From the NCBI RefSeq assembly GCF_046483245.1, contig NZ_JAWODO010000041.1:3836-67835 (forward strand): a stretch of DNA of 64,000 bases, read 5' to 3'. The translations under genes were made by a program, and so were the position numbers. The notes beneath the pieces were generated by a model. That model did no database searches and was not told where the DNA came from. It saw only the letters and a program-made list of their open reading frames with translations. The first letter of the stretch is position 1, and each line of letters starts with the position of its first letter. This stretch comes from Desulfosalsimonas sp. (GTDB lineage Bacteria > Desulfobacterota > Desulfobacteria > Desulfobacterales > Desulfosalsimonadaceae). Of this stretch, positions 2,442 through 39,311 are shown piece by piece.

Positions 2442-2497
2442 GATTCACACCTGCCGGGGCCGGCTTGATGTCCCGGCTGTATATCCCGGGCCGTGCC

Positions 2498-11910: not shown

Positions 11911-11944
11911 GCCATATCCGAAAACAAGCCCCCGGCCGGTGGTT

Positions 11945-11982
11945 TAAAAAATAAAACCCCGCAAACGCCTGGCGCAGCGGGG
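11945..11982 (-). terminator. Rho-independent terminator of the minus-strand small membrane protein gene
   Basis: On the minus strand, CCCCGC (11982-11977) pairs with GCGGGG (11962-11957) across a 14-nt loop and is followed by TTTTATTTTTT. Confidence 0.5.
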
Positions 11983-12022
11983 CCTGGGACCGGAAACAGC
12001 CCTGGACAGTTACAGAAGACGG

Positions 12023-12310
12023 CTATTTTTCCGCTTTTAACTCTTCGAGTTGCTTTTTGAGCTCTTCATTTTCCTTGCGGTATTTTTCCGCTTCGCTTTC
12101 GCTCTGGCCAGAGCCGCCGGGCTCCACGCCCGTGTCTTTCTGCCAGGTATCTTTCAACTCGTCAAAGCCCAGATACAAAGCCAGGCAACCGCCGAGGAGC
12201 AGCATCACCGGAATGGCACCCGCCAGAAGCTGCAGAAATGCATCAAACCAGATTGCCAGACCGATTACGCCGATTACAGCTGCGACTGCACCGCCAATTA
12301 AAGTTTTCAT
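12023..12310 (-). CDS. Small membrane protein with a C-terminal coiled coil (hypothetical)
   Basis: Two predicted TM helices followed by 'EAEKYRKENEELKKQLEELKAEK'. A terminator lies downstream. Confidence 0.5.
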   Translation of the reverse strand: MKTLIGGAVAAVIGVIGLAIWFDAFLQLLAGAIPVMLLLGGCLALYLGFDELKDTWQKDTGVEPGGSGQSESEAEKYRKENEELKKQLEELKAEK

Positions 12311-12588
12311 AACGCCACGTCCTCCTTTGTTTAATATTTATGATCGGATCACAATATTGATTGTTTCGATCAGGTGGGGCCCACCTCCCGTGCTTTTGAG
12401 AATAACAAATTTTCATCTAACACAGGCGGATTTGTAAAGCAAGCAAAAACCCTGGGGGCGGATGCCACATCCCGGGGCCGCCCGGAGCACTGATATCCGC
12501 ACCAAAGGCACGGACAGTTTGCCGCTTGAAAAGCCTTGGCCAACTTGGTATGGTTCCATAAAAACTCTTTACCAAAAAGGCGGCAGCC

Positions 12589-15246: not shown

Positions 15247-15263
15247 GATCTGTGGTTTTTCAA

Positions 15264-17009: not shown

Positions 17010-17090
17010 CGCAGACGGCTGTTTTGCTTACAACCATACCATTTTCCAACACATTCTTTTTTGTCACCAATTTTTGAAAGGAAATTTTGT

Positions 17091-22354: not shown

Positions 22355-23425
22355 CTATTTTTCCGCTGCTTCGGGTTCGCCGCCGGCGGGATCCTGGCCG
22401 GCTTCGGCGGTGGCCTCTTCCTTTTTGCCCGGGGTCAAGCCCAGGGCCGTCTTGACCCGGTCGCGCAGGTTGGCGTGCAGGTCCGGATTTTCATGGAAAA
22501 ACTTCTTGATGTTCTCCCGGCCCTGGCCCAGGCGCTGGCCGTCATGGGAATACCAGGAACCGCTTTTTTCAATGACCCCGGCCTTGACCCCCATATCCAG
22601 CAGATCGCCTGCGGCAGAGATGCCTTCGCCGTACATCACATCAAACTCGGCTTCCTTAAACGGCGGGGCCAGCTTGTTTTTGACCACCTTGGCCTTGGTG
22701 CGGTTGCCCATCACCTCCTGGCCCTCCTTGATGGACCCGGTCCTGCGCACCTCAATGCGCACCGAAGAATAAAATTTCAGGGCGTTGCCGCCGGTGGTGG
22801 TCTCGGGATTGCCGAAAACCACCCCGATTTTCATCCGGATCTGGTTGATAAAGATCAGGGAGGTGTTGGTCTTGGAAATGGTGCCGGTGAGCTTGCGCAG
22901 GGCCTGGGACATGAGCCGGGCCTGAAGGCCCATGTGGGAATCGCCCATTTCCCCCTCGATTTCCGCCCGGGGCACCAAAGCGGCCACCGAGTCGATGACC
23001 AGAATGTCCACGGCCCCGCTTCGAACCAGCATATCAGCGATTTCAAGGGCCTGCTCCCCGGTATCCGGCTGGGAAACCAGCAATTCATCGGTATTGACCC
23101 CGAGCTTTTTGGCATAGGCAGTGTCCAGGGCGTGCTCGGCATCCACAAAGGCTGCAATGCCGCCCTGCCGCTGGGCCTCGGCCACGGCATGCAGGGCAAG
23201 AGTGGTTTTGCCCGAAGCTTCGGGTCCGTAAATCTCGGTGACCCTTCCCCGGGGAATGCCCCCGATGCCCAGAGCCAGGTCCAGGGCAATGGAACCGGTG
23301 GGGATTGCCGGAATGTCAATGATGGTGTTGCTGCCCAGCTTCATGATCGATCCCTTGCCGAACTGGCGCTCGATCTGGCCGATGGCCGTCTGTACCGCCT
23401 TTTCCTTGTCCATGGACTTGCTCAT
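22355..23425 (-). CDS. recA: Recombinase RecA
   Basis: '[13 protein letters not shown]', '[10 protein letters not shown]' and '[12 protein letters not shown]'. It ends 9 bp upstream of the alaS start. Confidence 0.98.
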
Positions 23426-23547
23426 ATCCGCCTCCTAGGATGTGTCATGCCCCTTGCCTGAAAACCAAGGTCCCCGGGGTTGATGCCGGTGACAATCATT
23501 TTTTGCAAGACTGCAAAATGAATTTCGTGTGTTTGTTGAAAAATATA

Positions 23548-24180
23548 TTAAACCATGGGGTCCGCGCCCAGCCCGTGGCCGGAAATCATCCTGTAAACCG
23601 GGCCTTTCGGGGTCAGGGTGCTTTCAAACAATTGCACGGATTGTATTTCAAAAGGGCCGGCACAAAAACCGCCGAACTGTTCAATGGCATCTGCAACACC
23701 GGCCGGATCGGGTTTTGCCTTAAACCGGCCCAGGGTCAAATGCCCGGTAAATTCCCGGTTTTCCCTTTCAAATCCCAGCTGCGCCATTTTCTCTTCCACG
23801 GCCTGCTGCAAACATGCCAGCTGTTCGGTCTGTCCCCCGATTCCGGTCCACATGACCCTGGGCCGGCGAATGCCGGGAAACACCCCAAGGCCCCGGGTGT
23901 CTATACGCATTTTGGAAAAACCGGAGACCGCCTCTGCTGTGGCAGCAGAAACCGCTTTTACGGCCGAAGCCGGCACAGGGCCCAAAAATTTCAGCGTCAG
24001 GTGAATGTTTTCCGGGGCCGTGTATTTCATTTTCAGGCCGGATTTCCGGAGTCGCGCCTGCAAATCGGCCAGGGCCGCTGTCACTTCCCCGGGCAGGCTC
24101 ACAGCAATAAAAGCCCGCACAAAATCGTCCGTTTGCGCTTGTGTCCGGCTCCTTTGGGTATTTTTTTCACTCATGGGCAT
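23548..24180 (-). CDS. thpR: RNA 2',3'-cyclic phosphodiesterase (2H family, ThpR/LigT)
   Basis: Two H-x-T-x motifs, 'HLTLKFLG' and 'HLTLGRF'. Confidence 0.85.
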   Translation of the reverse strand: MPMSEKNTQRSRTQAQTDDFVRAFIAVSLPGEVTAALADLQARLRKSGLKMKYTAPENIHLTLKFLGPVPASAVKAVSAATAEAVSGFSKMRIDTRGLGVFPGIRRPRVMWTGIGGQTEQLACLQQAVEEKMAQLGFERENREFTGHLTLGRFKAKPDPAGVADAIEQFGGFCAGPFEIQSVQLFESTLTPKGPVYRMISGHGLGADPMV

Positions 24181-24190
24181 CCCGGGGTCC

Positions 24191-24664
24191 TTACCCGAAG
24201 CCGGCTGGCAACATAGCCAGGACTGCTGCCAGAATCACCCGGCAGATCAGGCCTGCGGCCACGTCATCAATGACCACACCCAGACCGCCGTCAAATTGTT
24301 TTTCCAGCCACCCCACGGGAAAGGGCTTTATGATGTCAAAAATCCGAAACAGCACAAACCCGGAAACCGCCAGGGGCCAGGACAGGGGAAGCCCCACAAA
24401 AACAACTGCCATGCCCGCAATCTCATCAATTACAATGGCTCCGGGGTCTTTTTGCCCCATCACGGCCTCGGCCCGTCCCGCAGACCAGACAGCTGCTGCA
24501 ATCACGGCCAATACCAGCAGCGCGGCATAGCCGGTGTGCATCTGCGCCATGACCCAGTACAGCAAAAGGCCCGGAAGCGAGCCAAACGTGCCCGGGGCAA
24601 AGGAAATTTTGCCGATATAGCCGCCCGTGGCCACGGCCACGGACAATTTGGAGATAAAATTCAT
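24191..24664 (-). CDS. pgpA: Phosphatidylglycerophosphatase A
   Basis: 'GTFGSLPGLLL' and 'FRIFDIIKPFPVGWLEK...GLGVVIDDVAAG'. Confidence 0.85.
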   Translation of the reverse strand: MNFISKLSVAVATGGYIGKISFAPGTFGSLPGLLLYWVMAQMHTGYAALLVLAVIAAAVWSAGRAEAVMGQKDPGAIVIDEIAGMAVVFVGLPLSWPLAVSGFVLFRIFDIIKPFPVGWLEKQFDGGLGVVIDDVAAGLICRVILAAVLAMLPAGFG

Positions 24665-24704
24665 TTGGTTCTATAATCTGCAGCCGTATGTGTCAAGGCA
24701 TTGT

Positions 24705-25883
24705 TCACGGACGCTTCCGGCCCCCGTCATGGGCAAAACAGCCCAGAGCCGATTCATAAACTGTGCGCAGGGCGACATTGCCGGCCTCTGCCGCACGGCG
24801 GCAGGATTCATACTCGGGCGCGATGCGCCAGCCGCCTTCCGGGGTTTTGACCTGCTTGGCCGCAATCTCGCCGTAAGGGGTGCTTACCACAACGGCCCTG
24901 CGCTCCAGGACCCTGCGCCGGACCGGGTAATAGCGCACCCCGATGGCGCTGGTCTCACTTAAAATCCGCGACATCAGAGCCTGTTGGCAGGCGCTGTCAC
25001 ACAGCACCTGCAGCAGCACCCCGGGCCTGCCCTTTTTCATGTAAACCGGTATCATGTAAACATCCCGGGCGCCGTCTGCAAACAACCAGTCTGAAACATA
25101 AGCATAAATCTCGGGATTCATGTCGTCAATGCAGGTTTCCACCATGACCATGGCATCCGCCCCTACATCCGGGCTGCTGCCGGTGATGATGCGCAGGACA
25201 TTGGCGCGCGCCTCCAGATCCCGGCCGCCGGCCCCATATCCGATATTTTCCACCACCATGTCGCAAACAGGGCCGAAATCCCGGGCAAGGGTGGTAATAA
25301 TGGCCGCACCCGTGGGGGTGACCAGCTCAAAGGGAATTTGGGATCCGTATACCGACACCCCTTTTAGCAGGGCCGCGGTTGCCGGCGCCGGCACGGGCAG
25401 GGTGCCGTGGCTGCAGGTGACCGTGCCCGATCCCAGGGGAAGGGGCGAGGCAAACACCTTTTCAATGCCCAGGTAATCAATGCCCATGGCCGTGCCCACC
25501 ATGTCCACGATGGCATCCACGCCGCCCACTTCGTGAAAATGAACCCGGGCTTTTTCGCATTCGTGGATTTTTGCCTCGGCTTCAGCCATCCGGTCAAACA
25601 TGGCCAGGCTCATCTGCCTGACCGGCTCGGCCAGGCGGCTTTGGGCGATCATCTGCGAGATGGCCTGGTAATCGCGCTCCGGTCCGTTTTCCGCCTCAAC
25701 GCTGACAGACGTGGCCGAAATGCCGCAGCGTTTCACACGCCGGGCCGTGAGCTGAAAATCATCCAGACCCAGCTGGTCTTTGAGATTCTGCACCAGCCAG
25801 TCCATGGGCACACCCAGTTCCGCCAGGGCACCAAGGGTCATGTCCCCGCTGATGCCGGAAAAACAATCAAAATAGGCAATCAT
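24705..25883 (-). CDS. larC: LarC (DUF111) nickel-pincer cofactor cyclometallase
   Basis: N-terminal 'YFDCFSGISGDMTLGAL', 'HFHEVGGVDAIVDMVG', and a length and architecture typical of LarC. Confidence 0.85.
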   Translation of the reverse strand: MIAYFDCFSGISGDMTLGALAELGVPMDWLVQNLKDQLGLDDFQLTARRVKRCGISATSVSVEAENGPERDYQAISQMIAQSRLAEPVRQMSLAMFDRMAEAEAKIHECEKARVHFHEVGGVDAIVDMVGTAMGIDYLGIEKVFASPLPLGSGTVTCSHGTLPVPAPATAALLKGVSVYGSQIPFELVTPTGAAIITTLARDFGPVCDMVVENIGYGAGGRDLEARANVLRIITGSSPDVGADAMVMVETCIDDMNPEIYAYVSDWLFADGARDVYMIPVYMKKGRPGVLLQVLCDSACQQALMSRILSETSAIGVRYYPVRRRVLERRAVVVSTPYGEIAAKQVKTPEGGWRIAPEYESCRRAAEAGNVALRTVYESALGCFAHDGGRKRP

Positions 25884-27031
25884 GGGCGATAATCCCCGTG
25901 GGCGTGCAGGCCGATGATCTCGGTGAGCAGTTCAACGGTGCGGGCCATGTCATCAACGGCAATGTTTTCCCGGACCGTGTGGATTTCGCGCATGCCCGTG
26001 CCGATCACCCCGGTGATAATACCCTTGCCGAAAAAAATATTGGCATCCGCCCCGCCGCCGGTGCGGCGGCAGACCAGCTCCCGGCCCAGGCGGGCCGCGG
26101 CGGTCTTGGCCATGCGCACCACTGCATGTTCTTCCGGGATACGGGTCCTTGGAAATTCGTTTGTCAGATCAACGGTCACCCGGGACACGTCTTGTCGGCC
26201 CTGCTCCCGGGGCCAAGTGCGGGCCTGGGCATCAAAGGCCTCCAGGATTTTGCGGGTCACCGCCTCCAGCTTTGCCGGATCATGGCTTCTGACCTCCCCT
26301 TTGACCCGGGCGGTCTCGGGAACAATATTGGTGGCCCCTTCGCACTGAAACACCCCGATGTTGGCGGTGGTCTCCTCGTCAATGCGGCCGAGTTCCAGAG
26401 AGGCTATTGCCCGGCTGGCAAGCACGATGGCATTGATCCCCTTTTCAGGTTCAGCCCCGGCATGGGCGGCTTTTCCGTAAACCACCAGTTCAAAGTGATT
26501 GGCCGTGGGCGCCCGGGTGATAATGGTTTCGGTGTCCGCGGTGTCCAGGGCATAGCCGTATTTTGCCGAAATCAGGCTGAAATCCAGGTTCTTGGCGCCC
26601 TGCAGCCCAATTTCCTCGCATATGGTAAACACCAGATCCAGGGGACCGTGATCCCTGTTGTTTTCATGCAGGGACAAAACGGTTTCAATGATGATGGCGA
26701 GCGCACTTTTGTCATCTGCGCCCAGCACGGTTGTGCCGTCGCTGTAAAACACCCCGTCAACAAACCGGGGCTTGACCCCCCGGCCCGGCTCCACCGTGTC
26801 CATGTGGGCATTTAACATCAGCGGGGGCACATCCCGGGTGCCGGCAATCCGCAAGATCAGGTTGCCGGTATCGCTTCCGGTGTGGCGGCCCGCATCATCG
26901 ATAAAGATCTCCGGGTTTAAGGGCTCGAGCATCTTTCGGATTTCACGCGAGACCCGCCCTTCTTCCCGGGAGACGGAATCTATGGATACAAGGGTTTTAA
27001 AGGTTTCTGCCAGTCGTTTTTTGTTGACCAT
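25880..27031 (-). CDS. M20-family metallopeptidase (PepT/tripeptidase-like)
   Basis: 'LVSIDSVSREEG', 'NAHMDTVEPG', 'GADDKSA' and 'EEIGLQGA'. Its stop overlaps the larC start by 4 nt. Confidence 0.8.
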   Translation of the reverse strand: MVNKKRLAETFKTLVSIDSVSREEGRVSREIRKMLEPLNPEIFIDDAGRHTGSDTGNLILRIAGTRDVPPLMLNAHMDTVEPGRGVKPRFVDGVFYSDGTTVLGADDKSALAIIIETVLSLHENNRDHGPLDLVFTICEEIGLQGAKNLDFSLISAKYGYALDTADTETIITRAPTANHFELVVYGKAAHAGAEPEKGINAIVLASRAIASLELGRIDEETTANIGVFQCEGATNIVPETARVKGEVRSHDPAKLEAVTRKILEAFDAQARTWPREQGRQDVSRVTVDLTNEFPRTRIPEEHAVVRMAKTAAARLGRELVCRRTGGGADANIFFGKGIITGVIGTGMREIHTVRENIAVDDMARTVELLTEIIGLHAHGDYRP

Positions 27032-27055
27032 TGCACAATCACCCCAAAGATGTTA

Positions 27056-27083
27056 TTGACAAAAAATACACAATTACTATTGT
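27056..27083 (+). promoter_or_regulatory. Candidate sigma-70 promoter of tRNA-Sec
   Basis: TTGACA (27056-27061), a 16-nt spacer and TATTGT (27078-27083), about 15 nt upstream of the tRNA 5' end. Confidence 0.4.
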
Positions 27084-27098
27084 CTCATTGATCCATGC

Positions 27099-27196
27099 GG
27101 AAGTGCGCAGCTCACTGGTGGGGCTCCCGGACTTCAAATCCGGTGTGGGGCGTTAAAACCGTCCCGGGTGGGTTCGATTCCCATGCACTTCCGCCA
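27099..27196 (+). tRNA. selC: tRNA-Sec (anticodon UCA)
   Basis: 98 nt. It has an 8-bp acceptor stem (GGAAGTGC/GCACTTCC), anticodon loop CT-TCA-AA, a long variable arm, GGTTCGATTCC T-arm and an encoded GCCA end. It is closely collinear with E. coli selC. Confidence 0.93.
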
Positions 27197-27215
27197 TTTT
27201 TATTTGTTTTTTCAG
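27172..27215 (+). repeat. attL-like copy of the 44-bp direct repeat (last 25 nt of tRNA-Sec plus 19 nt downstream)
   Basis: GTTCGATTCCCATGCACTTCCGCCATTTTTATTTGTTTTTTCAG is identical to 36670..36713. Confidence 0.9.
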
Positions 27216-28720
27216 TAACTTGAATTTCTCAAATCCGCTTTTTTCGTTCACGATCCTTTCAGGATTTACCATAAACTTTCACGGAAAACAAACTGTCTTT
27301 TACATTCACGAGCGAAGCAAGGCCTGAATTTTGGGTCATCCGGTAGATGCCGGGATAAACTGAAATTCCCAGATAGTTGATCGAAGTCTCAAGCACATCG
27401 GTCGGACCGGCGGCGGGCCGAGAATGGGCGCCACAAAGAGGCTCGTCGGAGGGGCGCCGCCGCAGCCGACCGGTGTGCGGTGTCTGATATTGAATAATTC
27501 GTTGCCCCGTGTTTGCGGCTGCAGCCGCAGGCATGGGGGTTTGTTTTTTAGCCCTGATTGTCTGGTTCTCTGCTCCAGCTTTGTCCCTGACAAAACACAG
27601 ACACACTCATACATCGCACACTTCACACACACATCAAATCAGGGGCTATTCCGATCAAAGGGCAAAAAAAGGAAGATTGTGCTTGACTGATCCGAAAAAA
27701 CGGTAATCCGGAAAAAGTGGAGACCAAAAAGCCCGGCTGCCAGCCCTTTTCTTGCGACACACAACTACACCGCAGACCGTTTTTTAAAGGCGAAAGTCAC
27801 AGCGCAATACACTTTTTTTACATCCTGAATCCCTCAGTTCCTTTAAAGGAATTTGATTGTTCCGGCTGATCGGAATTGTTTTCGGTCAAAAGATTTTTCT
27901 TCCTATTGTGGTGGATTATAGGGTCCAGTGATAATTCATTCCTGCCCGGCGCGTTGCCTTCCCCACGGATAATATCTGTAAGTCCTGTATCCGGAAACCG
28001 ATTGTTTGCTTGGTTTCATGCGCCGAATCCGCTGCGTGTTGGGGTGCTTGCACCTTCCGTCTTCTTCAACCGGCGAAACCTTAATGACAGAACCGTCATC
28101 AAGGGGCCACTGCCCCGAGCCGGCCTCGCCGAAGTTTTGCTGGCCGACCTTGCGCAGGGCAAGCAGGGCCTGCCGGAGGCTCATTCCCGGGCGGATGGGG
28201 CTTTGACGCCGTTTTCCGGGAGGTTGTCGGTTTTGCCGCAGTTGACAACAACTGCCTTGTCTGAAAGCATACGCCGTTCTTTTGTCTGTACTTTCACTTT
28301 TCTGCCGGTGAAATGATTGACTTTCTTTCACATATCAAAATCTGACCAGGGGCAAAACCTTATTTCCCATATAAGCATACAGACGATAAAAAATTCATTT
28401 TGTCCCAAGTATAGGTCCCATTATGTTTCTATTTTTTCCAGGGAACGGACCGTTTCAGCCGAGGCGTGATAAACCTCCGTGAAATCATAATGGCGGTCAT
28501 AATACCGGTGTAATCTGCCGATAGGCCCGGAACAGGTCATTGCGGATGAATGACAGGAGGGGAAAAGAAAATCTTGGTAATGTGCAAAAAGAAATTTTTG
28601 TCGGGGGGCATGTAACTGCTATGGTGCACCCCACGGAGGCAAATAGCCGCGAGGCATGATAGCCGCTATGGTGCATTTTTTAAAAATTGGATTTTTTTAT
28701 TTTTAAAATCAACAAAATAT

Positions 28721-28751
28721 TTGACGCCCCGGTTTTTTGGAGGCATATAAA
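28721..28751 (+). promoter_or_regulatory. Candidate promoter upstream of the island histidine kinase
   Basis: TTGACG (28721-28726), 17 nt, then CATATA (28744-28749), which overlaps TATAAA. It lies about 80 bp upstream of the ATG at 28829. Confidence 0.3.
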
Positions 28752-28828
28752 GATTCGTTTCATCGATTCATATGTGAAATGAATTCCTGCGTCTTTTTTG
28801 GTCTAATTCAAACCATGGTGTTACCAAA

Positions 28829-31015
28829 ATGACAAAAAACCTTCCTATTCGCTATAAATTGTTATTGTATTACACGATTTTGTTTACAGTATCACTTTCA
28901 TTGGGAAGTGTATTTACCTACATCCTCGTCCGGAATACAATCACCAAAAATATTGAAAGCGAACTAGAGCACACAACACAGGCCATTTTGAATATGGTGA
29001 AAACTTCTGCCGATGTATCCATCAAAAATCATCTGCGTGCCATCGCTGAGAAAAACGAAGAAATTGCGCAATACTACTACGATCAATACCAAGATGGCAA
29101 GATCTCCGAAGACAATGCCAAGCAGCTCACTACAAATCTGTTCCTGAACCAGACCATCGGTAAATCCGGTTATACCTACTGTCTCGACAGTTCCGGAGTG
29201 GTAGTGATTCATCCTGAAGAGGAACTGCTCAACACCAGTGTTGCCCAGCATGAGTTTATTCAGCGTCAAATTCAAGTGCTTGAAGGATATCTGGAATATC
29301 AGTGGAAAAACCCGAAAGAAAAACAGTTACGCCCAAAAGCGATGTATATGACTTATTTTGAACCTTGGGACTGGATAATTTCGGTCACATCCTACCGAAA
29401 AGAATTCAAGGATGTGGTGAATGTCAATGATTTCAAAGACAGTATATTAAAATTCCGGTTCGGCAAAACCGGATATTCTTTTGTAATCGATAGCACTGGA
29501 ACCGCAATCATCCATCCTAAACTCGAAGGCGTAAATGTATTAAATGACGATCAATTTTCCAACCAAACCCTGGAAGCAATGGTGAAAGAGAAAAAGGGCA
29601 AATACATTTATCCCTGGAAAAATCCCGATGAACCCAGGGAAAGACAAAAGCTCGTGATTTTCAATCATATTCCTGAATACGACTGGATGGTGGCCTCTTC
29701 AAGCTACCTGGACGAATTTTATCGTCCTCTGATGACTATCCGCTCCTTCATATTGTTAATAGCAGCAATTACGATTGTCCTGATTATCGCCCTTACTTTC
29801 AAGATCAGCGCGTCCATTACTAAGCCACTTAAAAAATTGACCAATCATTTTGATCAAATAGGCAGAACAAATTTTTCCATGCGCATGGAGTGGGATTCAA
29901 AAGACGAAATCGGCCAACTTGCTTCATACTTCAATGATTTCATGGAACAATTGGAACAATACAGCAATGATTTGAACGAGGAGATCAAACAACGTCGAAA
30001 AGCTGAAGCTGCGCTTCGTATGAGCCAAGAACGCTATCAATCAGTAATGGAGGCAACCCCTGATCCTATCGTTCTTTACAATATGAAAGGTGAAGTAATC
30101 TTTTTCAATCCTGCTTTTACGCGGGTATTTGGATGGCGATTGGAAGAATGCATCGGCCGGAAGATGGACTATTTCGTACCGGATGAAAACTGGCCCGAAA
30201 CCCGCAGTATGATAAAAAGAATTCGTTCGGGTGAAAGTCTGTCGTTTGTGGAATCCTGCCGGTTGAACAATCGGGGCGACATCGTTCCGGTAACAATAAG
30301 CGGGGCTACCTACAAGGACCCACAAGGCAATTTGGTTGGCAGCGTGATAATCTTGAGAGATATCACCAAAACGAAACGCCTTCGTAAACAAATTATGGAT
30401 ATATCTGAGAATGAACGTCAAAAATTCGGCCAATGTCTCCACGACGACCTAAGCCCACACATGATAGGAGTACAAGGTCTATGCACCGTCCTGGAAACAA
30501 ACCTAAAGGAGGAATCCTCCAATCACGCTCAATTGGCAGCGAAAATAACGGTTTTGGTAAGCAATGCCATTAAAAAAATCAGGGCACTATCCAGGGGGCT
30601 TTGCCCGGTACATCTTGTCTCCCATGGTCTTTTTTCAGCATTGGAAGATCTTGCTGCCAGAACTGAAGATACTGCCGGCATTCGAGTTCTGTTCAAAGGG
30701 AATGGGACGTTTCACTTCAGTGATAATATTGTCGCAACTCATCTGTATTTTATCGCACAAGAAGCCGTGACAAACGCAATCAAACATTCCAATGCAGACG
30801 AAATCATTATTGAACTTTCAGGGGATCAGGGAAAAATGCAACTTTCGATTTCCGATAATGGAAATGGCTTTGAGAAAAATGAATCCCTCCCGGGAATTGG
30901 CTTGCAAATTATGGAATACCGGGTGAGAATAAGTGGTGCAACGATGCGAATCATTACCAAAAAAGAACACGGTACGATTATTCGTGTTTTATTAAATACG
31001 GTGCAAAACGGATAA
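28829..31015 (+). CDS. Sensor histidine kinase: TM, double Cache, TM, HAMP, PAS, HisKA_3, HATPase
   Basis: Two Cache-like repeats ('GYTYCLDSSGVVVIHP...WDWIISVTSY' and 'GYSFVIDSTGTAIIHP...YDWMVASSSY'), HAMP 'ITKPLKKLTNHF...DEIGQLASYFNDF', a PAS region, H-box 'LHDDLSPHM', and N and G boxes at the C-terminus. Confidence 0.9.
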   Translation: MTKNLPIRYKLLLYYTILFTVSLSLGSVFTYILVRNTITKNIESELEHTTQAILNMVKTSADVSIKNHLRAIAEKNEEIAQYYYDQYQDGKISEDNAKQLTTNLFLNQTIGKSGYTYCLDSSGVVVIHPEEELLNTSVAQHEFIQRQIQVLEGYLEYQWKNPKEKQLRPKAMYMTYFEPWDWIISVTSYRKEFKDVVNVNDFKDSILKFRFGKTGYSFVIDSTGTAIIHPKLEGVNVLNDDQFSNQTLEAMVKEKKGKYIYPWKNPDEPRERQKLVIFNHIPEYDWMVASSSYLDEFYRPLMTIRSFILLIAAITIVLIIALTFKISASITKPLKKLTNHFDQIGRTNFSMRMEWDSKDEIGQLASYFNDFMEQLEQYSNDLNEEIKQRRKAEAALRMSQERYQSVMEATPDPIVLYNMKGEVIFFNPAFTRVFGWRLEECIGRKMDYFVPDENWPETRSMIKRIRSGESLSFVESCRLNNRGDIVPVTISGATYKDPQGNLVGSVIILRDITKTKRLRKQIMDISENERQKFGQCLHDDLSPHMIGVQGLCTVLETNLKEESSNHAQLAAKITVLVSNAIKKIRALSRGLCPVHLVSHGLFSALEDLAARTEDTAGIRVLFKGNGTFHFSDNIVATHLYFIAQEAVTNAIKHSNADEIIIELSGDQGKMQLSISDNGNGFEKNESLPGIGLQIMEYRVRISGATMRIITKKEHGTIIRVLLNTVQNG

Positions 31016-31029
31016 AGTAAGCCTGCCTT

Positions 31030-31704
31030 ATGAATAAACACCAGGAAAAAAAACGAGTCACAATCTTCATCGTGGATGATCATCCAGTATTTTGCCTTGG
31101 AATGACCGAACTAATAAACAAGGAAAAGGACCTGCAGGTCATTGGCAGTGAGGAAAACGCTCAAATTGCCATCCAAGAGATTGAGAATCAAAAACCTGAT
31201 TTCGTGATTGTAGATATTTCCTTAAAAGACAGTGACGGCATCGACCTGGTCCAGGAACTCAATAGAAGTTATCAGGATCTGCCAGTGCTGGTACTTTCCA
31301 TGTACGATGAGTCGCTTTATGCCGAAAGGGCAATGCTGGCAGGCGCACGTGGATACATAATGAAACAGGAAGCAATACCTGTTGTCGTCAAGGCCATTCG
31401 GCATGTTCTTGCCGGAAATATTTACGCCAGTGAAAAGATAAAAGAAAAAGTATTCCAGCGTCTGGTTACAAAAAAAAAGAAACTTGAGAATAACTTTTCA
31501 CTGGACCTGCTCTCCAACCGGGAACTGGAAGTTTTCCGTCTTACCGGCAAAGGTTTTTCAACAAAGGAAATTGCCGAACAGATGAACCTTTCCCCTAAAA
31601 CAATCGGAACATACCGCGAAAATATAAAGAATAAACTTGACCTTAAACATTACACTGAACTGATCAAATTTGCCGTTCACTGGTCACAGAAAATCGAGTT
31701 TTAG
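31030..31704 (+). CDS. Response regulator, NarL/LuxR family (REC plus LuxR HTH)
   Basis: 'IFIVDDHP', phospho-acceptor 'VIVDISLKDSDG', and 'LSNRELEVFRLTGKGFSTKEIAEQMNLSPKTIGTYRENI'. Confidence 0.92.
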   Translation: MNKHQEKKRVTIFIVDDHPVFCLGMTELINKEKDLQVIGSEENAQIAIQEIENQKPDFVIVDISLKDSDGIDLVQELNRSYQDLPVLVLSMYDESLYAERAMLAGARGYIMKQEAIPVVVKAIRHVLAGNIYASEKIKEKVFQRLVTKKKKLENNFSLDLLSNRELEVFRLTGKGFSTKEIAEQMNLSPKTIGTYRENIKNKLDLKHYTELIKFAVHWSQKIEF

Positions 31705-32041
31705 GTGTAATTCTCACCAAAAGCCCTGATTATATTTTTGGGCGCTGAAGTATCAATATCTACCTGCTTTCGAAAAAATCCCATCCGCGACAAGTCTCGT
31801 AGTTTACGTGTTGCAGTACCCCTGTTTTTATCCCGTCATGCACATAACTCTCTTTTACTGCATAGGCTTAAAACCTAAACAAAGCACCCGGTAAAAGCCT
31901 ACCCGCTATCAGCTTTTCTGCAATTGCATTTTCGGCCATGGGCCTATTGTTTAATGATTTTGCATTGACTAATCTATACCATCAATTAGTCCAACTGCAA
32001 TCCGATTGAACACAAAATACCAATTAAACAGGAGGTAGGCA

Positions 32042-33652
32042 ATGGCAAACCGTTCAGTTTGTAAGCATCTGCTTAGTCCAGTCAATTTTCTTTATCGAAG
32101 TGCGTCGGTTTTTCCGGAAAAGACCGCGGTCATCAACGGACCAAAGCGTTATACTTACGCCCAGTTCCAGGAAAGGGTGTTTCGGTTCGCCAATGCTCTT
32201 TTGAAAAGTGGCATCCGCAAAGGGGATAAAGTAGGTTTTATTTGCCCCAACATCCCCCCGATGCTCGAGGCCCATTACGCAGTACCCATGATCGGGGCAA
32301 CTCTGGTGGCTATCAACATCCGTCTTTCTTCCGGAGAAATTGAATATATCATCAACCACTCAGATGCAAAAGCCCTGTTTGTAGACAATGAGTTTGCCCC
32401 CACTGTTTTGCCGGTGATCGATAAATTGCCGCATATCGATCTGTTGGTCAACATCTGCGATGCAAGCAATGAAATGCCATTGGATGGTCCCGATTATGAG
32501 ACATTTATCGGATTGAGTTCACCCGATCCGGTGGAAAATGCCATCGAGGATGAATACGATGTGGCAACGATCAACTATACTTCGGGTACCACCGGGCAGC
32601 CCAAAGGAGTCATGTACCATCACCGCGGGGCTTACCTGAATGCCATCGGCGAGCAGTTGGAATTCCACACGGATGATCAATCTGTTTACCTGTGGACTCT
32701 CCCCATGTTCCATTGCAACGGCTGGTGTTTCACCTGGGGCATTACGGCTGTTGGGGCAACCCACGTATGTCTGCGCAAAGTGGTCCCGGAAGAAATCTAC
32801 AAAACAATCAAGGCCGAAGACATTACTCATCTGTGTGCCGCACCGACGGTATTGATCGGCATGTCTGCCTATGCCATCGAAAACCAGATCCGGTTAGACC
32901 ATCGCCTTGAAATCATGACTGCAGGTGCCCCCCCGGCTCCTACGGTAATACAGAACATGGAAAGCGTCGGCGCCAATATAACCCAGACCTATGGCCTCAC
33001 AGAAGTTTTCGGGCCCCATAGCGTATGCCAGTGGCAAACGGCATGGGATGATCTAAGCCCCGACAAAAAAGCCGTTTACAAGGCCCGCCAGGGCGTTCCC
33101 TTTATTGTCGCCGAACACATGGATGTTGTTGATCCCGACACCATGGAGTCTGTACCGCGCGATGGAAAAACCATGGGCGAAATTGTTATGCGGGGAAATA
33201 ATGTCATGCTGGGCTACTACAAGGACCCCGAGGCAACCGAGGAGGCGTTCAGGGGTGGGTGGTTTCATAGCGGCGATTTGGCTGTCATGCATCCGGACAA
33301 TTACGTGCAGATCATGGATCGCAAAAAGGATGTGATCATCAGCGGAGGTGAAAATATTTCAACGGTCGAGGTAGAAAACGTATTGTACAAGCACCCGGGC
33401 GTCATGGAAGTCGCGGTAGTCCCGATCCCCGACGAGAAATGGGGCGAAGTGCCGAAGGCTTTCGTCGTGCCACAACCCGGGTCGACACCGGACGCGGAAT
33501 CGATCATCGCGTTCTGCAAAGAGCATCTGGCCCGGTTCAAGGCGCCAAAGGTCGTCGAGTTTGGAGAACTGCCGAAAACAGCTACCGGCAAAATCCAAAA
33601 GTATAAATTGCGTGAAAAAGAATGGCAGGGTCGTGAGCGGAAGGTCAATTAA
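32042..33652 (+). CDS. AMP-forming acyl-CoA synthetase/ligase (short/medium-chain or aromatic acid type)
   Basis: 'INYTSGTTGQPKGV', 'GLTE', 'GWFHSGDLA' and 'PKTATGKIQK'. A strong GGAGG RBS precedes the start. Confidence 0.9.
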   Translation: MANRSVCKHLLSPVNFLYRSASVFPEKTAVINGPKRYTYAQFQERVFRFANALLKSGIRKGDKVGFICPNIPPMLEAHYAVPMIGATLVAINIRLSSGEIEYIINHSDAKALFVDNEFAPTVLPVIDKLPHIDLLVNICDASNEMPLDGPDYETFIGLSSPDPVENAIEDEYDVATINYTSGTTGQPKGVMYHHRGAYLNAIGEQLEFHTDDQSVYLWTLPMFHCNGWCFTWGITAVGATHVCLRKVVPEEIYKTIKAEDITHLCAAPTVLIGMSAYAIENQIRLDHRLEIMTAGAPPAPTVIQNMESVGANITQTYGLTEVFGPHSVCQWQTAWDDLSPDKKAVYKARQGVPFIVAEHMDVVDPDTMESVPRDGKTMGEIVMRGNNVMLGYYKDPEATEEAFRGGWFHSGDLAVMHPDNYVQIMDRKKDVIISGGENISTVEVENVLYKHPGVMEVAVVPIPDEKWGEVPKAFVVPQPGSTPDAESIIAFCKEHLARFKAPKVVEFGELPKTATGKIQKYKLREKEWQGRERKVN

Positions 33653-33704
33653 GGCCTCTGCTTAATCAAATGAATCTTAAAAGAACAAACAAAAAGGAGA
33701 TACC

Positions 33705-35075
33705 ATGTCATTTTCGTTGTATAAGCGCAAGGAAGGCGAAGAGCAGCCTTATTGGCCTTTTGGCCCCTTTAAAATCAGGCTGCCCCTGATTCACTATCGA
33801 TGGGAATGGATTGAATTCTTCCAGGCCTTGATCCTTTTTGTCGTGAGCCTGGCCATGATTCCACTACTTGAAAAATACCTGGGTCTGCCATATGAAATAG
33901 CCTTGGCTTATGTCTTCGTTTGTGGCATCGGGTTTATGCTCCCGGCATTCCTCGGGGTTCCCATGGTGCCGGGATGGATCACGCCGGCCATTCCTGTGGT
34001 CCTGCTGTATTTATCCCAGTTTGAACCCGGCCCGGAAGCGATCCAGGCGCTGGTCGCTCTCCAGCTGCTCGTGGCAGCGATTTTCCTTTTACTCGGTATC
34101 ACCAAGCTGAGCAGTCGGATCGTTAGAAATGTTCCGTCGTCCATCAAGGCCGGAATCCTGCTGGGGGCCGGAGTGGCTGCTTTAATGGGCGAACTGGAGA
34201 TAGGAGGCCGCATTACCAATACCCCTATTGCCCTTGGACTCGGATCATTGCTCTGTTTCTACATGCTCTTTTCCATTTCATTTTTGAAGCTGAGGCAGAC
34301 AAATCAAATTGCCCGTATTTTAGGCAAATTTGGTATGGTTCCCGCCATGGTGTTTGCCATCGGAATCGGCATGTTGGTCAGAGAATACCCCCTGCCGGAT
34401 ATTGAATTCGGCATCACGATCCCCGCATTTAAAGAGATGTGGGGGTACCTGCCGTTTATGGTTGGATTTCCCACGGCAGATATGTTTATAAAGGCGATTC
34501 CAACCGCCATTATCGCCTATATCATTGCATTCGGAGATATCATTGTCGGTACTGTACTGGTCCATACCGCCTCTGCCGAAGCACGCCCGGATGAGAAGGT
34601 GGATACCGGCGCTGATCGTATTCACCTGGTTACCGGTCTGCGCAATGTTATCCATTCCTTATTCGCGCCTTACCCGGGACTGGCAGGACCGATCTGGACG
34701 GCAGTTACCGCAACAGTGGCTGACCGGTACCGACAGGGACGTCAAGCCATGGATTCGATCACCAGCGGAAGCGGAACCTTCTGGGTGGCCGGATTCCTTG
34801 CCCTGTTCATCCTGCCGTTGGTCAGCTTTTTTAAACCTTTTCTGCCCATCGGCCTCTCTTTGACCCTGGTGGTGACCGGCTATTTATGCATCATCACCGC
34901 TTTTAAACAGGTCGAGACGCCGGCCGAACTCGGCGTTGCCGGCACCATGGCTGTCGTCCTTGCCATGCATGGCGCTGCATGGGGATTGGGTGTCGGTATT
35001 GTTCTGCACATTATTTTGGAAAGGAGACTCTCCCTGATTCCAGACAAGCCCGATGTAGAACCAGCAAAGAATTAA
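33705..35075 (+). CDS. Polytopic inner-membrane protein, putative transporter/permease (family not recognised)
   Basis: 456 aa with at least 10 hydrophobic segments and a good RBS (AAAGGAGA). It starts 53 bp after the acyl-CoA synthetase. Confidence 0.6.
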   Translation: MSFSLYKRKEGEEQPYWPFGPFKIRLPLIHYRWEWIEFFQALILFVVSLAMIPLLEKYLGLPYEIALAYVFVCGIGFMLPAFLGVPMVPGWITPAIPVVLLYLSQFEPGPEAIQALVALQLLVAAIFLLLGITKLSSRIVRNVPSSIKAGILLGAGVAALMGELEIGGRITNTPIALGLGSLLCFYMLFSISFLKLRQTNQIARILGKFGMVPAMVFAIGIGMLVREYPLPDIEFGITIPAFKEMWGYLPFMVGFPTADMFIKAIPTAIIAYIIAFGDIIVGTVLVHTASAEARPDEKVDTGADRIHLVTGLRNVIHSLFAPYPGLAGPIWTAVTATVADRYRQGRQAMDSITSGSGTFWVAGFLALFILPLVSFFKPFLPIGLSLTLVVTGYLCIITAFKQVETPAELGVAGTMAVVLAMHGAAWGLGVGIVLHIILERRLSLIPDKPDVEPAKN

Positions 35076-35268
35076 CAAAACAGCACAAAAGCTCTTGCCG
35101 GTCTCCACCCCTTTCCCATAATTGCCTTGGATCTGGCAAGGGCTTTACAGAATGTCATCCACCTTCAATGGTACTCCCAAATCCGGGAACAATGGGCATT
35201 CAGTTTGGTAGCCTTAAATTGTCTTCATTAATTTTTCAAGGACTATGGCACGAACAAAGGGAGGATGC

Positions 35269-35793
35269 ATGAAAATCAAACCCGTTCAGATTAAAAAAAT
35301 TCTCTATACCACAGATTTTTCGGACACATCCCTGTACGCTTATTCCTATGCGGTCAGCCTGGCCAATCTTTATAGGGCCAGTATTACCGTGTTGCATGTA
35401 ATCACGGACCCTATAAACATAGAGGCACAGCTTTCCGGTCTCCTGCCGGAAGACCAGTGGGCGGCTATCAAGAACCGCCACATCGAGGAAGCCAGGGAAA
35501 CACTTCTGGAGAAACGTCGCGACAACGTGATAATCCACGAAACACTGAACCAGTTCACGGAAAACGTCAAGGCTGAAAACCGCACTTCAAAAGCGGCTGC
35601 AAACGACGAAGTAGTTGTATTGTGGGGCGAGCCAGTGGATAAAATCCTGAAGGTTTCCGAGGAGGGCGGGTGCGACCTGATCATCATGGGAACGCACGGC
35701 CACGGCCTTCTCGATAGCCTGCTGGGAACGACAGCCAAAAAAGTGCTCCGCAAGTCCATGATTCCAGTATTGACGGTGCGTCTGCCCGATTAA
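35269..35793 (+). CDS. Universal stress protein (UspA family)
   Basis: 'KKILYTTDFSDTS', 'ITVLHV' and 'DLIIMGTHGHGLLDSLLGTTAKKVLRKSMIPVLTV'. The ATG is preceded by AAGGGAGGA. Confidence 0.85.
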   Translation: MKIKPVQIKKILYTTDFSDTSLYAYSYAVSLANLYRASITVLHVITDPINIEAQLSGLLPEDQWAAIKNRHIEEARETLLEKRRDNVIIHETLNQFTENVKAENRTSKAAANDEVVVLWGEPVDKILKVSEEGGCDLIIMGTHGHGLLDSLLGTTAKKVLRKSMIPVLTVRLPD

Positions 35794-36025
35794 ATCATCC
35801 TGAATTCTCCGCGCTGCCGGAAATGCACAAAGAATCCGGCTGCGCAGACCAAACATGCATTACCTTGGAACGCTGTCTGTTGCGGCAGCAATTCACGGTT
35901 ATTACCGATCTATTGCCTGAACGAAAACCAGCGTTTTACATGACCATCATAGTTGACACGTCACCTCTTTTCATACATACCATAATAATTACCTTGGAGT
36001 GAATTCTATCCAGGGAGGAGTATGC

Positions 36026-36633
36026 ATGAAAGGGCCAATCCATTTAAGAAAAGATGTAACTGATCCGTGGTGGTAAGTTGTTTGGTATGATCCGAGAACC
36101 GACAAAAGAGCCAGGATTTCAAGATATATGGATCGCAGCCGCATGTATCAGACGCACCCGAACACGGAAAAAGATTTCGGGCGCAAACAGGTCGAAAAGC
36201 TCTTGGCTCAGATGCAATCCGATGTTGAGCGTGGGGTGTTCCGACTTGAACGGTACACCGGAATCCAGCGCACCGATGTCGATCAATTTTATCAGGAATG
36301 GATGGATGAAGTAATCAAGAGGAATTTGAAGCCGGGGACATACAAAGCATATCACTTAGAAATATCTGGTATAAAGCCTGCGACGATGCGGGAATACCGA
36401 GAAAGTGGGTTTATCAGTCAACCAAGCACACGAGCTGCGCGCATTTTATTGAGGACGGCGGGACTGTGGATGAACTTCAGATGTTGACTGATCATGCCAG
36501 GTGCGATTCAGTTACCGTGTATGCAGAGGTAACACTTGAGCGGAAACGGGCTTTAATGGAAAAACATGAAAACGTGGTGGATTTTGAGGAACTTTCACGG
36601 AACTTTCACGGAATCGGAAAAGGCAAAAAATAA
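36026..36633 (+). pseudogene. Tyrosine recombinase (phage-type integrase) remnant with an in-frame stop, an internal deletion and a frame change
   Basis: N-terminal piece 'MKGPIHLRKDVTDPWW*VVWYDPRTDKRARISRY...QFYQEWMDEVIKRNLKPGTYKAYH' has a TAA at 36074-36076. C-terminal piece, in another frame, reads 'WYKACDDAGIPRKWVYQSTKHTSCAHFIEDGGTVDELQMLTDHARCDSVTVYAEV' (H...DH...Y catalytic-tail pattern). The central catalytic region is missing. Confidence 0.7.
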
Positions 36634-36669
36634 TAGAGTAAAAACGAAGGGTTATACTCAAAGGCACAA

Positions 36670-36713
36670 GTTCGATTCCCATGCACTTCCGCCATTTTTA
36701 TTTGTTTTTTCAG
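36670..36713 (+). repeat. attR-like copy of the 44-bp direct repeat (orphan 3' fragment of tRNA-Sec)
   Basis: Identical to 27172..27215. Sequence 5' of it has no similarity to the rest of the tRNA. Confidence 0.9.
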
Positions 36714-37101
36714 CAAGTTAACTTTCCAAGCCCATCTGATTTTCCCCGGTTTCTTCTCCCAGATCTATATCAGGGTTTGCCAAACTTGGCAAGCATACCC
36801 GTGCCCGCCCGGCTCCGGCGTATCCAAAGCGCACAATTGAAAACATTACCGGTGCCGTCTTGGATGTCTATTCATGGAAAACCCGTATTCCCCCGATAAA
36901 AGGCCCTTTCTGGAAACCATAAAACCCGTTTGTTATCGAAAAAAAACAGTCGCAACCCACTATGTAACAAAAAAAACTTTTGGCCTTAATTTTTCCGCCA
37001 CACGTCCGAAAAGATCCTTTTATGATTTCAGGAGGAAAAACATCTTAATTTTAAACAGAAAACATTTTGCAGAATGACCAAACTAAAAGGAGGCAAACGA
37101 A

Positions 37102-39039
37102 ATGAAGGCCAAATCATTGCGGTTCAAACTAATCGCCGGCGGAATACTGGTGGTGTTAATTCCTTTGCTGGCGGTTGGATATTTTGCTGTTACCCGGGCA
37201 TCAGAGGCTCTGCAGGGCCTTGGACGGGAACAAGTCGTCAATTTATCCAAAGATCTGTCCAGCATGACGGATTTGGTGCTCAAGGAAGAGCTGAAGCTGA
37301 GCACAGAAATTGGTTCGGATGTAAAATTGCAGGAAGCGGTATCCGCAGTGGTTGAAACAGGGAGGCAAAGTGCGGCCGCTGAAGCGGAATTATTGGACAA
37401 AAGGCTTTCAGGCATAATGACGTCCATCGGTCATGATTATGAAGCCATCTTTTTGGCCGATCCCAAAGGTGTTATTTATTCAGATGGCAACAAAGGCGCA
37501 TACCGGGATGTCTCCATCGCTGACAGACCTTATTTTCAAAAAGCAAAGAGCGGAAAAACCCTGGTCGGCAATCCCATAAAATCAAAGGTCACGGGCGATG
37601 TCGTGGTGCCGGTGGCCAGCCCGGTCCAGACCCCGGAAGGCAAATTTGCCGGTGTCCTTGCATTAATTGTTAAAATTGATTTTATCGCTGATAAAATCAC
37701 TTCTGTCAAAATCGGCGAAACCGGGTATCCTTTTATAGTGAATCAGAAAGGGCTGATTCTCGTCCATCCGGATGAAACCCTTATTCTGGAGACAGACATA
37801 ACCCAGCTTCCTGGCATGGAAGACATTGCCCGGGCGGCAACAAACGGCCAAACAGGGGTGAAACAATATATTTACCAAGGGGATAAAAAAATTGGGGGTT
37901 TTGCGCCCGTGGACCTTACCGGATGGAGCGTTGTAACAACTCAGACAGCTGATGATTTCATGGGAACGGCCAATTCCATTCGCAATTTCATGACAATCAT
38001 GACCGTTGTTTTCCTGGGCGCCACAATGCTGATTGTCATCTTTTTCGCCAACGGTATCAGCCGTCGGGTGATGAATATCGTGGATAGTTTAAACAGGAGT
38101 TCCGAGCAGGTCGCTTCAGCCTCCGGCCAGGTGGCCTCCACCAGCCAGTCCCTGGCGGAAGGATCCAGTGAACAGGCCTCAAGCCTTGAAGAAACATCTT
38201 CTTCCCTCGAGGAGATGGCGGCACAGACCCGCCAAAACTCCCAAAATGCGGATCAGGCAGACAATGCTGTCAAGGAGACTTCCAAGGTTGTTGAAAACGG
38301 GGTCTCATCCATGGAGCGAATGAACTCAGCCATCAATGAAATTAAGGAATCTTCCAACGAAACCTCGAAAATTATAAAAACCATTGATGATATTGCTTTC
38401 CAGACAAATCTTCTGGCACTTAACGCCGCAGTGGAAGCTGCACGTGCAGGCGAGGCCGGCAAGGGCTTTGCCGTTGTTGCCGAAGAGGTCAGAAACCTTG
38501 CCCAGCGAAGCGCCGAGGCCGCCCAGAACACATCCCAGCTTATTGAAAAATCTCAGGAAAACGCCAACAATGGCGTCAACGTGGCCGAGGAAGTCGCCAC
38601 GCAGCTCAATTCCATCAAAGAAAGCTCGGCCAAGGTGAATACCTTGATTTCAGAAATTGCCGCCGCCTCAAAGGAGCAGACCCAGGGCATCGAACAAGTC
38701 AATGTCGCGGTTTCTGAAATGGACAAGGTTGTTCAACAAAATGCCGCGGATTCCGAGGAATCTGCCAGTGCAGCCGAAGAACTTTCCTCCCAGGCGACAG
38801 AAATGGAAAAAATGGTTGCCGAACTGGAAGCGGTGGTGGCAGGCAGCGCTGCCGGTGGAGGCCACCGGTCAGATTATTCACAGCCATCCACGGCCAGGGT
38901 TCGTCCCAAAAAACAGTCATCGCATCAGCCGGAAAACAGGCAGCAGAAACAAACCCCCAAAAAGCTTGCCGGAAAACACCGGTCAAATGACGCAGATCAG
39001 GTAATCCCATTGGACGATAATGATTTCAAAGAATTCTGA
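37102..39039 (+). CDS. Methyl-accepting chemotaxis protein (TM, double Cache, TM, HAMP, MA domain)
   Basis: The highly conserved hairpin tip '[37 protein letters not shown]', Cache-like '[16 protein letters not shown]' and a strong AAAGGAGG RBS. Confidence 0.92.
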
Positions 39040-39066
39040 TACCTGAAAAAAACAATAAATGCAAAC

Positions 39067-39094
39067 AGGGCGGTCTGACAAGACCGCCCTTTGA
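39067..39094 (+). terminator. Rho-independent terminator after the MCP gene
   Basis: AGGGCGGTCT (39067-39076), loop GACA, AGACCGCCCT (39081-39090), then TTTG. Confidence 0.6.
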
Positions 39095-39311
39095 TAAAAT
39101 AAACCGGAGGACAAATCGAGGCGGCACCATCGCTGGGCATGCAGGCAAACACCCATTTCATCCTCGGCATGGCCAAAACCGAATCCGCTGTCAAGATTCT
39201 TCTGGATATCGACAAGGTCTTATCCGCCGAAGAAATGAATGCCCTGACCCGTACCAGCGGATAAACAAAAATAACAGGCGGGTTGTCGAAACCACCCCGG
39301 ATCAACCGGGT

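Follow-up and report, generated by a model that had tools for sequence, protein, structure and literature searches.

The 64,000-nucleotide stretch of a Desulfosalsimonas sp. contig analysed here (NZ_JAWODO010000041.1, positions 3,836 to 67,835; referred to below as the window) contains a gene for the selenocysteine tRNA (tRNA-Sec, selC) that is followed by a block of foreign DNA. This block, which spans positions 27216–36669 and comprises 9,454 bp unique to it, is very probably an integrative island that entered the tRNA gene by site-specific recombination, using a tyrosine integrase that belongs to a selC-targeting family. An earlier note on the same DNA had proposed the attL/attR pair of a selC-targeting element in a non-enterobacterial host, and this proposal is supported by an empty site in a related genome, by the distribution of the integrase family and by the layout of the attP arms.

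Analysis of the ends of the block revealed an exact 44-bp direct repeat, GTTCGATTCCCATGCACTTCCGCCATTTTTATTTGTTTTTTCAG, with two copies on the plus strand of the window, at 27172–27215 and 36670–36713. There is no third copy in the 64 kb even at three or fewer mismatches, and the 44-mer found no match in any of 100 shuffles of the sequence. The proximal copy overlaps an intact tRNA-SeC gene with anticodon TCA, called by ARAGORN at 27099–27196 on the plus strand and matched by the Rfam family RF01852 at 76.5 bits against a gathering score of 47. It consists of the 3' 25 nt of this gene and the 19 nt past the tRNA end, and the identity block begins 1 nt ahead of the 7-nt T-loop. Directly 5' of the distal copy lies non-tRNA sequence (...AAAGGCACAA), and no tRNA is called there by ARAGORN or Rfam. 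The positions of the two copies, the make-up of the first and the missing tRNA body before the second are as the earlier note had described them. The block begins at an intact tRNA and ends at a directly repeated, displaced 3' part of it, and we conclude that the two copies are attL (27172–27215) and attR (36670–36713), the latter being the displaced tRNA-Sec 3' fragment together with its 19 nt.

The site in its unoccupied form is present in a close relative. One genome per GTDB species was scanned with the M20 peptidase encoded just upstream of tRNA-Sec as the query, yielding 80 loci, in most of which the M20 peptidase and tRNA-Sec are adjacent. Locus L002 comes from a Desulfobacteraceae metagenome-assembled genome (MAG) that is about 94% identical in nucleotide sequence to the window, with values of 92–95% across the aligned blocks. 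Its gene order is LarC, M20 peptidase, tRNA-Sec and then a chemoreceptor gene, which is reached through a single core copy. In the reverse complement of L002, residues 1–4799 align with window 22428–27228 and residues 4746–7159 with window 36670–39098, and 27216–36669 is missing as one block. L002 carries an unoccupied attB, and its right-hand flank is the same as that of the distal 44-mer of the window, the attR core. The island genes occur at none of the 80 related selC loci.

The composition of the island is unlike that of the host backbone. Its GC content is 46.7% versus 54.6% for the rest of the window, and the lowest value among 143 equal-sized backbone segments is 52.05%. For tetranucleotides, the island lies at an L1 distance of 0.30 from the backbone, and the backbone segments reach 0.15 at most. 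The GC content at third codon positions (GC3) is 0.45–0.60 in the island genes and 0.68–0.71 in the flanking core genes. The earlier note had described the enclosed genes as richer in AT than their flanks and had recommended several checks, two of which came out in its favour: in GC and in tetranucleotides the island lies outside the range of the backbone, and in L002 the flanks meet at one 44-bp copy with 9.45 kb absent. Neither of the situations that it had named as refuting an island, the same genes in all relatives or a composition like that of the backbone, occurred.

What lies 3' of selC varies as a rule among related loci, which have anything from about 80 nt to 3.1 kb between tRNA-Sec and the next conserved gene. 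At L007 (reverse complement 11304–17079), a different insert of 5.75 kb sits at tRNA-Sec, between two copies of a 24-nt sequence from the tRNA 3' end. Its translations read as an ATPase, an 883-aa SNF2-type helicase and a SWIM-type zinc-finger protein, with no integrase, and on that reading it may be a defence island. Just outside attR in the window, the chemoreceptor gene at 37102–39039 has a GC content of 50% and a GC3 of 0.53, below the values of the core genes. It is absent in the 82%-identical L003, where an adenylate cyclase gene directly follows tRNA-Sec. A search for a degenerate third copy of the repeat past the chemoreceptor gene found none. The chemoreceptor gene may go back to an earlier insertion at this hotspot.

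The recombinase that would account for the repeat is represented by a tyrosine-integrase pseudogene at 36026–36633 on the plus strand. Two overlapping open reading frames (ORFs) at 36128–36633 are fragments of one gene, the stop codon of which ends at 36633, leaving 36 nt to the distal core. The tyrosine-integrase remnant reported earlier at this place stands, with its distance of 37 bp corrected to 36 nt. A protein search identified P0001 (locus L081), which is 327 aa long and encoded in a different Desulfobacterales MAG. At the nucleotide level, its locus shares 96% identity with window 35969–36354 and then runs on into a central domain that the window lacks, the L081-type sequence past position 36354 continuing AATCTACCTGGAC. 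P0003, found in the same search, is a C-terminal fragment with 71% identity that contains a Phage_integrase domain. A 397-aa integrase was reconstructed from P0001, P0003 and the C-terminus encoded in the window. According to tblastn, the window encodes only residues 1–119 and 305–397 of this reconstruction, in different frames. The deletion junction falls at about 36354, and some 185 central residues, corresponding to roughly 555–590 bp, have been lost in addition to the frameshift. The deletion took out the RRPGEA Arg I motif and the β-hairpin Lys, and the integrase gene is therefore dead.

No other copy of the integrase family was detected in the window by tblastn. With the Arg I region deleted and the remainder split between two frames, there is no functional integrase inside the island, which makes it a defective member of the tRNA-targeting islands. 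No excisionase is visible in the island either, and from this and the loss of the central catalytic part we conclude that the element is no longer self-mobile. A Logan contig assembled from a different sample (L118) also comes to an exact end at 36354, the junction of the deletion, and the independent contigs L084 and L001 end inside the 44-bp core. Such contig ends would fit either a mixture of variants in those samples or breaks induced by repeats.

The assignment of the remnant to the tyrosine integrases draws on its relatives. Full-length relatives and the reconstruction match PF00589 at 36–50 bits, above the cut-off of 27.1. For the remnant in the window by itself, Pfam yields no more than a SAM-like match below threshold, and NCBIfam returns only weak XerA-type and tyrosine-recombinase matches for the integrase. 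The Arg I motif (RRPGEA), the His of an LTDH motif and the Tyr are conserved family-wide. Box II reads Y-x-[GS]-x-K-H in all family members (window 36352–36630 and loci L085–L105) versus H-x-x-R-H in XerA. On this alignment to solved structures, which is weak (E = 7e-4), Lys falls at the position of Arg II and Tyr at that of His II.

Members of the family are found beside tRNA-Sec sequence at other loci. Behind the gene of the 71%-identical relative, in L082, comes a gap of 46 nt and then the 3' 24 nt of tRNA-Sec without a tRNA body, and in L083 a 53%-identical relative abuts tRNA-Sec itself. When IMG/VR was scanned with the 25-nt 3' end of tRNA-Sec, 22 viral contigs containing this 25-mer were recovered, in none of which do ARAGORN or Rfam find a complete tRNA-Sec. 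Full-length integrases, 36–47% identical to the reconstruction, are encoded by 11 of the 22 (L085, L089–L091, L093–L095, L099, L102, L103 and L105), and partial ones by three more. Eight of these 11 contigs were examined in detail. In all eight, int reads toward the tRNA-Sec fragment; its stop codon precedes the fragment by 20–82 nt in six of them and by 537 and 1304 nt in the other two, the corresponding distance in the window being 36 nt. On the far side of the fragment, L109 encodes a D5-type primase, and other contigs have a C4 antisense RNA. The presence of these genes alongside the fragment indicates that the contigs are attP forms of phage-like elements. We conclude that members of this integrase family recur next to 3' fragments of tRNA-Sec. 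Close relatives of the integrase were not found in viral contigs by an alignment-derived search, the pattern for which was poor, and a scan of metagenome contigs gave five loci, the best at 47% identity and none of them close.

Two further features of these loci concern the tRNA fragment and its surroundings. In six further viral contigs (L086, L088, L097, L101, L104 and L106), where ARAGORN and Rfam likewise call no complete tRNA-Sec, the fragment is longer and begins at the anticodon loop instead of the T-loop; these contigs appear to represent a second class of selC-targeting elements. In addition, a motif resembling ATTTCA(G/A)TAA(C/G)TT recurs 10–20 nt 3' of tRNA-Sec in many selC loci of bacteria and in attP fragments of viral contigs alike, examples being L006, L008, L016, L017, L020, L022, L085, L088 and L101. 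It could be a shared component of the att site or a trace of past integrations.

The island ends share a second, shorter repeat. The 12-mer ACTTTCACGGAA has only three copies in the 64 kb, all of them beside the cores, against a chance expectation of 0.27. Two lie in tandem with an 11-nt pitch at 36591–36613, in the 3' end of int and 57 nt before attR, and the third is at 27275–27286, 59 nt after attL; all are given on the plus strand. If the right end of the island is joined to its left end, an attP is reconstructed in which the core is flanked by direct repeats. Six related attP loci show the same layout, each with a 9–17-nt repeat of its own that lies about 60 to 80 nt before the core and about 40 to 80 nt after it. 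From this recurring layout we infer that the copies of ACTTTCACGGAA are arm-type integrase binding sites, with two tandem candidate sites in a putative P arm (36591–36613) and one in a putative P' arm (27216–27304).

DNA similar to the P' arm is also found 3' of tRNA-Sec in L009 (reverse complement 11288–11421; about 84%) and in L010 (72%), over about 110 nt. The L009 stretch includes ACTTTCCCGGAA. At both loci ordinary core genes (amtB, glnB) come next. This P'-arm-like DNA could be the scar of related elements, or it could reflect an old shared ancestry of attP and the selC flank.

This anatomy, read together with what is established for tRNA-targeting tyrosine integrases, suggests how the island might have been established. 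The site of strand exchange would have been the left edge of the identity block, within the T-loop or immediately past it, and the integrase would have bound ACTTTCACGGAA by its N-terminal domain. The tRNA 3' end brought in by the element would have completed tRNA-Sec at attL, and the original 3' end of the host gene would have been displaced to attR.

Five intact genes, all on the plus strand, occupy most of the island. The first two encode a sensor histidine kinase (28829–31015), in which Pfam recognises dCache, HAMP, PAS, HisKA_3 and HATPase domains, and a NarL/LuxR-type response regulator (31030–31704) with receiver and GerE domains, identified by Pfam and NCBIfam. The best NCBIfam matches of the pair are MctS and MctR, below the cut-off. 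They are followed by an acyl-CoA synthetase of the AMP-binding family (32042–33652; Pfam), which matches NF006020 in NCBIfam with 729.8 bits against a cut-off of 677 and whose relatives in the PDB are fatty-acid and aryl CoA ligases, of generic value only. Next is a 456-aa permease (33705–35075), NCS2/SLC23-like on the strength of a weak Xan_ur_permease match, with homologues at 80–85% identity that are widespread in Desulfobacterales. The last is a universal stress protein (35245–35793; Pfam Usp, E = 2e-27). The kinase, regulator, synthetase and permease genes are collinear, at 71–78% nucleotide identity, with L112, L113 and L115, which belong to Desulfobacula phenolica and two other Desulfobacterales and have other flanks and no integrase. 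Judged by its domain content, the cassette would most likely serve to sense an organic acid, take it up and activate it with CoA. It is not mentioned in the Desulfobacteraceae network paper.

Between attL and the kinase gene there is a region of 1.6 kb (27216–28828) with no convincing gene and with no match in Rfam, in Pfam (for its ORFs), or in phage or plasmid records. Folding and a terminator scan locate, on the plus strand, a long GC-rich hairpin at 27393–27480 and then a terminator-like hairpin with a T-run at 27505–27548. The 191-nt stretch that contains both (27370–27560) folds with a z score of -4.1, and the terminator-like stem is 15 bp long; the hairpin region, 27393–27548, matches no Rfam family. 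Beyond the hairpins are two non-coding blocks, at 27566–27675 and 27852–28665, in which no gene can be recognised and which are 87% and 93% identical to residues 348–1792 of L117, an unrelated 100-kb contig. Between the two copies some 230 nt hardly vary, and indels break the reading frames. Folding of the blocks gives no strong structure. A plus-strand ORF in the left region has, among 1.84 billion representative proteins, only one 99%-identical ORF and one match at chance level. A minus-strand ORF has a near-identical copy in L117 only, where indels break the frame.

In L117, the matching blocks sit downstream of a Cas12f/TnpB-like gene with a mini repeat–spacer array. The gene, at 2446–3795 on the minus strand, encodes a 449-aa Cas12f1-like/TnpB protein, and after it, at about 2150–2446, GTAGCRTCCCTGCGCGTGTGGATG occurs three times, separated by spacers of 36 nt, in what resembles a small CRISPR array. 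No TnpB remnant was found in the left region of the island.

Three other kinds of element were considered for the block. It is not a prophage, as it has no structural, lysis or replication genes, its five intact genes being, by Pfam, those of the kinase, regulator, ligase, permease and stress protein. A retron or phiR73-like element was rejected because the block contains neither a reverse transcriptase nor an Rfam retron RNA. As regards an integrative and conjugative or mobilisable element, relaxase and type IV secretion domains are found in no island ORF; oriT was not searched for.

Several observations weigh against a simple integration event. The integrase is a pseudogene, so that integration is read from its scar rather than observed, and no excised circle or attP junction of this element was found. 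The 19-nt identity past the tRNA end exceeds what the mechanism needs. The P'-arm-like DNA in L009 and L010 occurs without a second copy of the repeat, and part of the P' arm could be old selC-flanking sequence. The window derives from a MAG. Moreover, GC content is patchy within the island, at 41% in the kinase and regulator genes and 51–52% in the ligase and permease genes, and the closest integrase relative, in L081, has different neighbouring genes. These last two points together indicate that the 9.5 kb may not have come as one unit.

The most serious rival builds on precisely this point. It supposes that the island is a remnant with replaced cargo, in which a larger phage-like element at selC lost its phage genes by deletion, and the cassette and the left-hand non-coding DNA came later through unrelated recombination, so that the original element would be represented by the att sites and int alone. 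The homology to L081 begins only 57 nt upstream of int, and the neighbour there is a Lin1244_N replisome-organiser-like gene in place of that for the universal stress protein. The distant integrase relatives reside in phage-like contigs with a primase or C4 antisense RNA; the cassette exists in three other genomic contexts apart from int or selC; the left blocks are common to the unrelated locus L117; and the uneven GC within the island points the same way. Set against this, no insertion sequence, transposase or second recombinase lies beside the cassette, the whole of the DNA between the cores is absent from L002 as one block, and one integration of a small element that was already mosaic is the simpler account. 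We regard replacement of the cargo as possible, if somewhat doubtful, and it is a sub-scenario that would refine integration by a selC-targeting integrase, not contradict it.

It is improbable that the island is still mobile in trans, as a non-autonomous element moved by a cognate integrase and excisionase supplied by a co-resident relative. The state of the recombination sites is compatible with such mobility, the cores being identical at 44 of 44 positions and all three arm sites identical to one another, and a 96%-identical int is present in another MAG. The Logan contig that ends at 36354 is likewise compatible with the coexistence of intact and deleted variants, but contig ends are weak evidence. 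Furthermore, the 64 kb contain no helper integrase, no attP junction has been seen, and the metagenome scan produced no close relatives of the integrase. We consider equally unlikely the more elaborate proposal of a trans-mobile hitch-hiker, moved by the selC-specific integrases of related phage-like elements, that spreads the cassette among Desulfobacterales; this proposal adds that the integrase family may have a non-canonical active site, in which Lys replaces Arg II and Tyr replaces His II.

The remaining two explanations can be set aside more firmly. That the contig is a chimera, joined through repeated tRNA-Sec 3' sequence so that the island does not belong at this selC, might be suspected from its MAG origin and from the several independent contigs that break in the core or at the tRNA end (L001, L084), but it is very improbable: the P and P' arms, at attR and attL respectively, have one 12-mer in common, as those of a single integrated element would, the attR flank is the attB flank of L002, the independent assembly L084 repeats the stress protein gene, int and core at 99.9% identity, and 44 bp is shorter than a typical read. 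It is just as hard to credit that no integrase was involved, the region being ancestral, the repeat the product of a local duplication and the gap in L002 a loss by homologous recombination, for although a 44-bp direct repeat could support deletion and a clean empty site is known from one close relative only, the island genes are missing from all of the related loci, the composition is foreign, and a pseudogene of a selC-linked integrase family lies in its usual position with arm sites. Integration at tRNA-Sec by such an integrase is the reading that we favour.

In this light, selC is a hotspot of integration and variation in Desulfobacterales as well as in Enterobacteria. The hotspot is tied to an integrase family that can be defined and whose attP layout can be recognised, and knowledge of this could improve the calling of island and prophage boundaries in MAGs of sulfate reducers. 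The island also documents the horizontal movement of a conserved catabolic and regulatory cassette. As an example of a familiar kind, it leaves the current picture of the workings of these islands as it was.

Genomic islands integrated into tRNA and tmRNA genes by tyrosine integrases have been catalogued by Islander, and the principle is summarised there (PMC4383910). The Desulfosalsimonas island resembles those of the Islander type in having the tRNA intact at one end, a 3' fragment repeated at the other, int near one end, foreign composition and an empty site. It differs in that int is a pseudogene, the identity extends 19 nt past the tRNA, and the target is tRNA-Sec in Desulfobacterales.

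In Enterobacteria, selC is occupied by the islands LEE, PAI-I and SHI-2 and by the retronphage phiR73, with P4-type integrases encoded beside the intact tRNA. The target is the same here, and here too duplication of the tRNA 3' end bounds the foreign DNA. In contrast, int is at the distal end of the Desulfosalsimonas island and reads toward the fragment, and the cargo is a catabolic and regulatory cassette, not a set of virulence genes. The integrase does not qualify as P4-type, being distal and matching no named P4 family in NCBIfam; a direct comparison with P4 integrases was not made.

In a λ-type attP, the core is flanked by arm-type sites to which the N-terminal domain of the integrase binds. 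The attP reconstructed from the window and those of the six related loci would be similar, judging by the short direct repeats that lie on both sides of the core and tens of nucleotides away from it. The sequence of the repeat differs between elements, and sites for Xis, IHF or Fis were not identified. The closest parallels are the IMG/VR elements. Their phage-type genes, the D5-type primase and the C4 antisense RNA, are absent from the island, whereas they share with it the integrase family (36–47% identity), the orientation of int followed by the fragment and, for the most part, the spacing and the arrangement of the arms.

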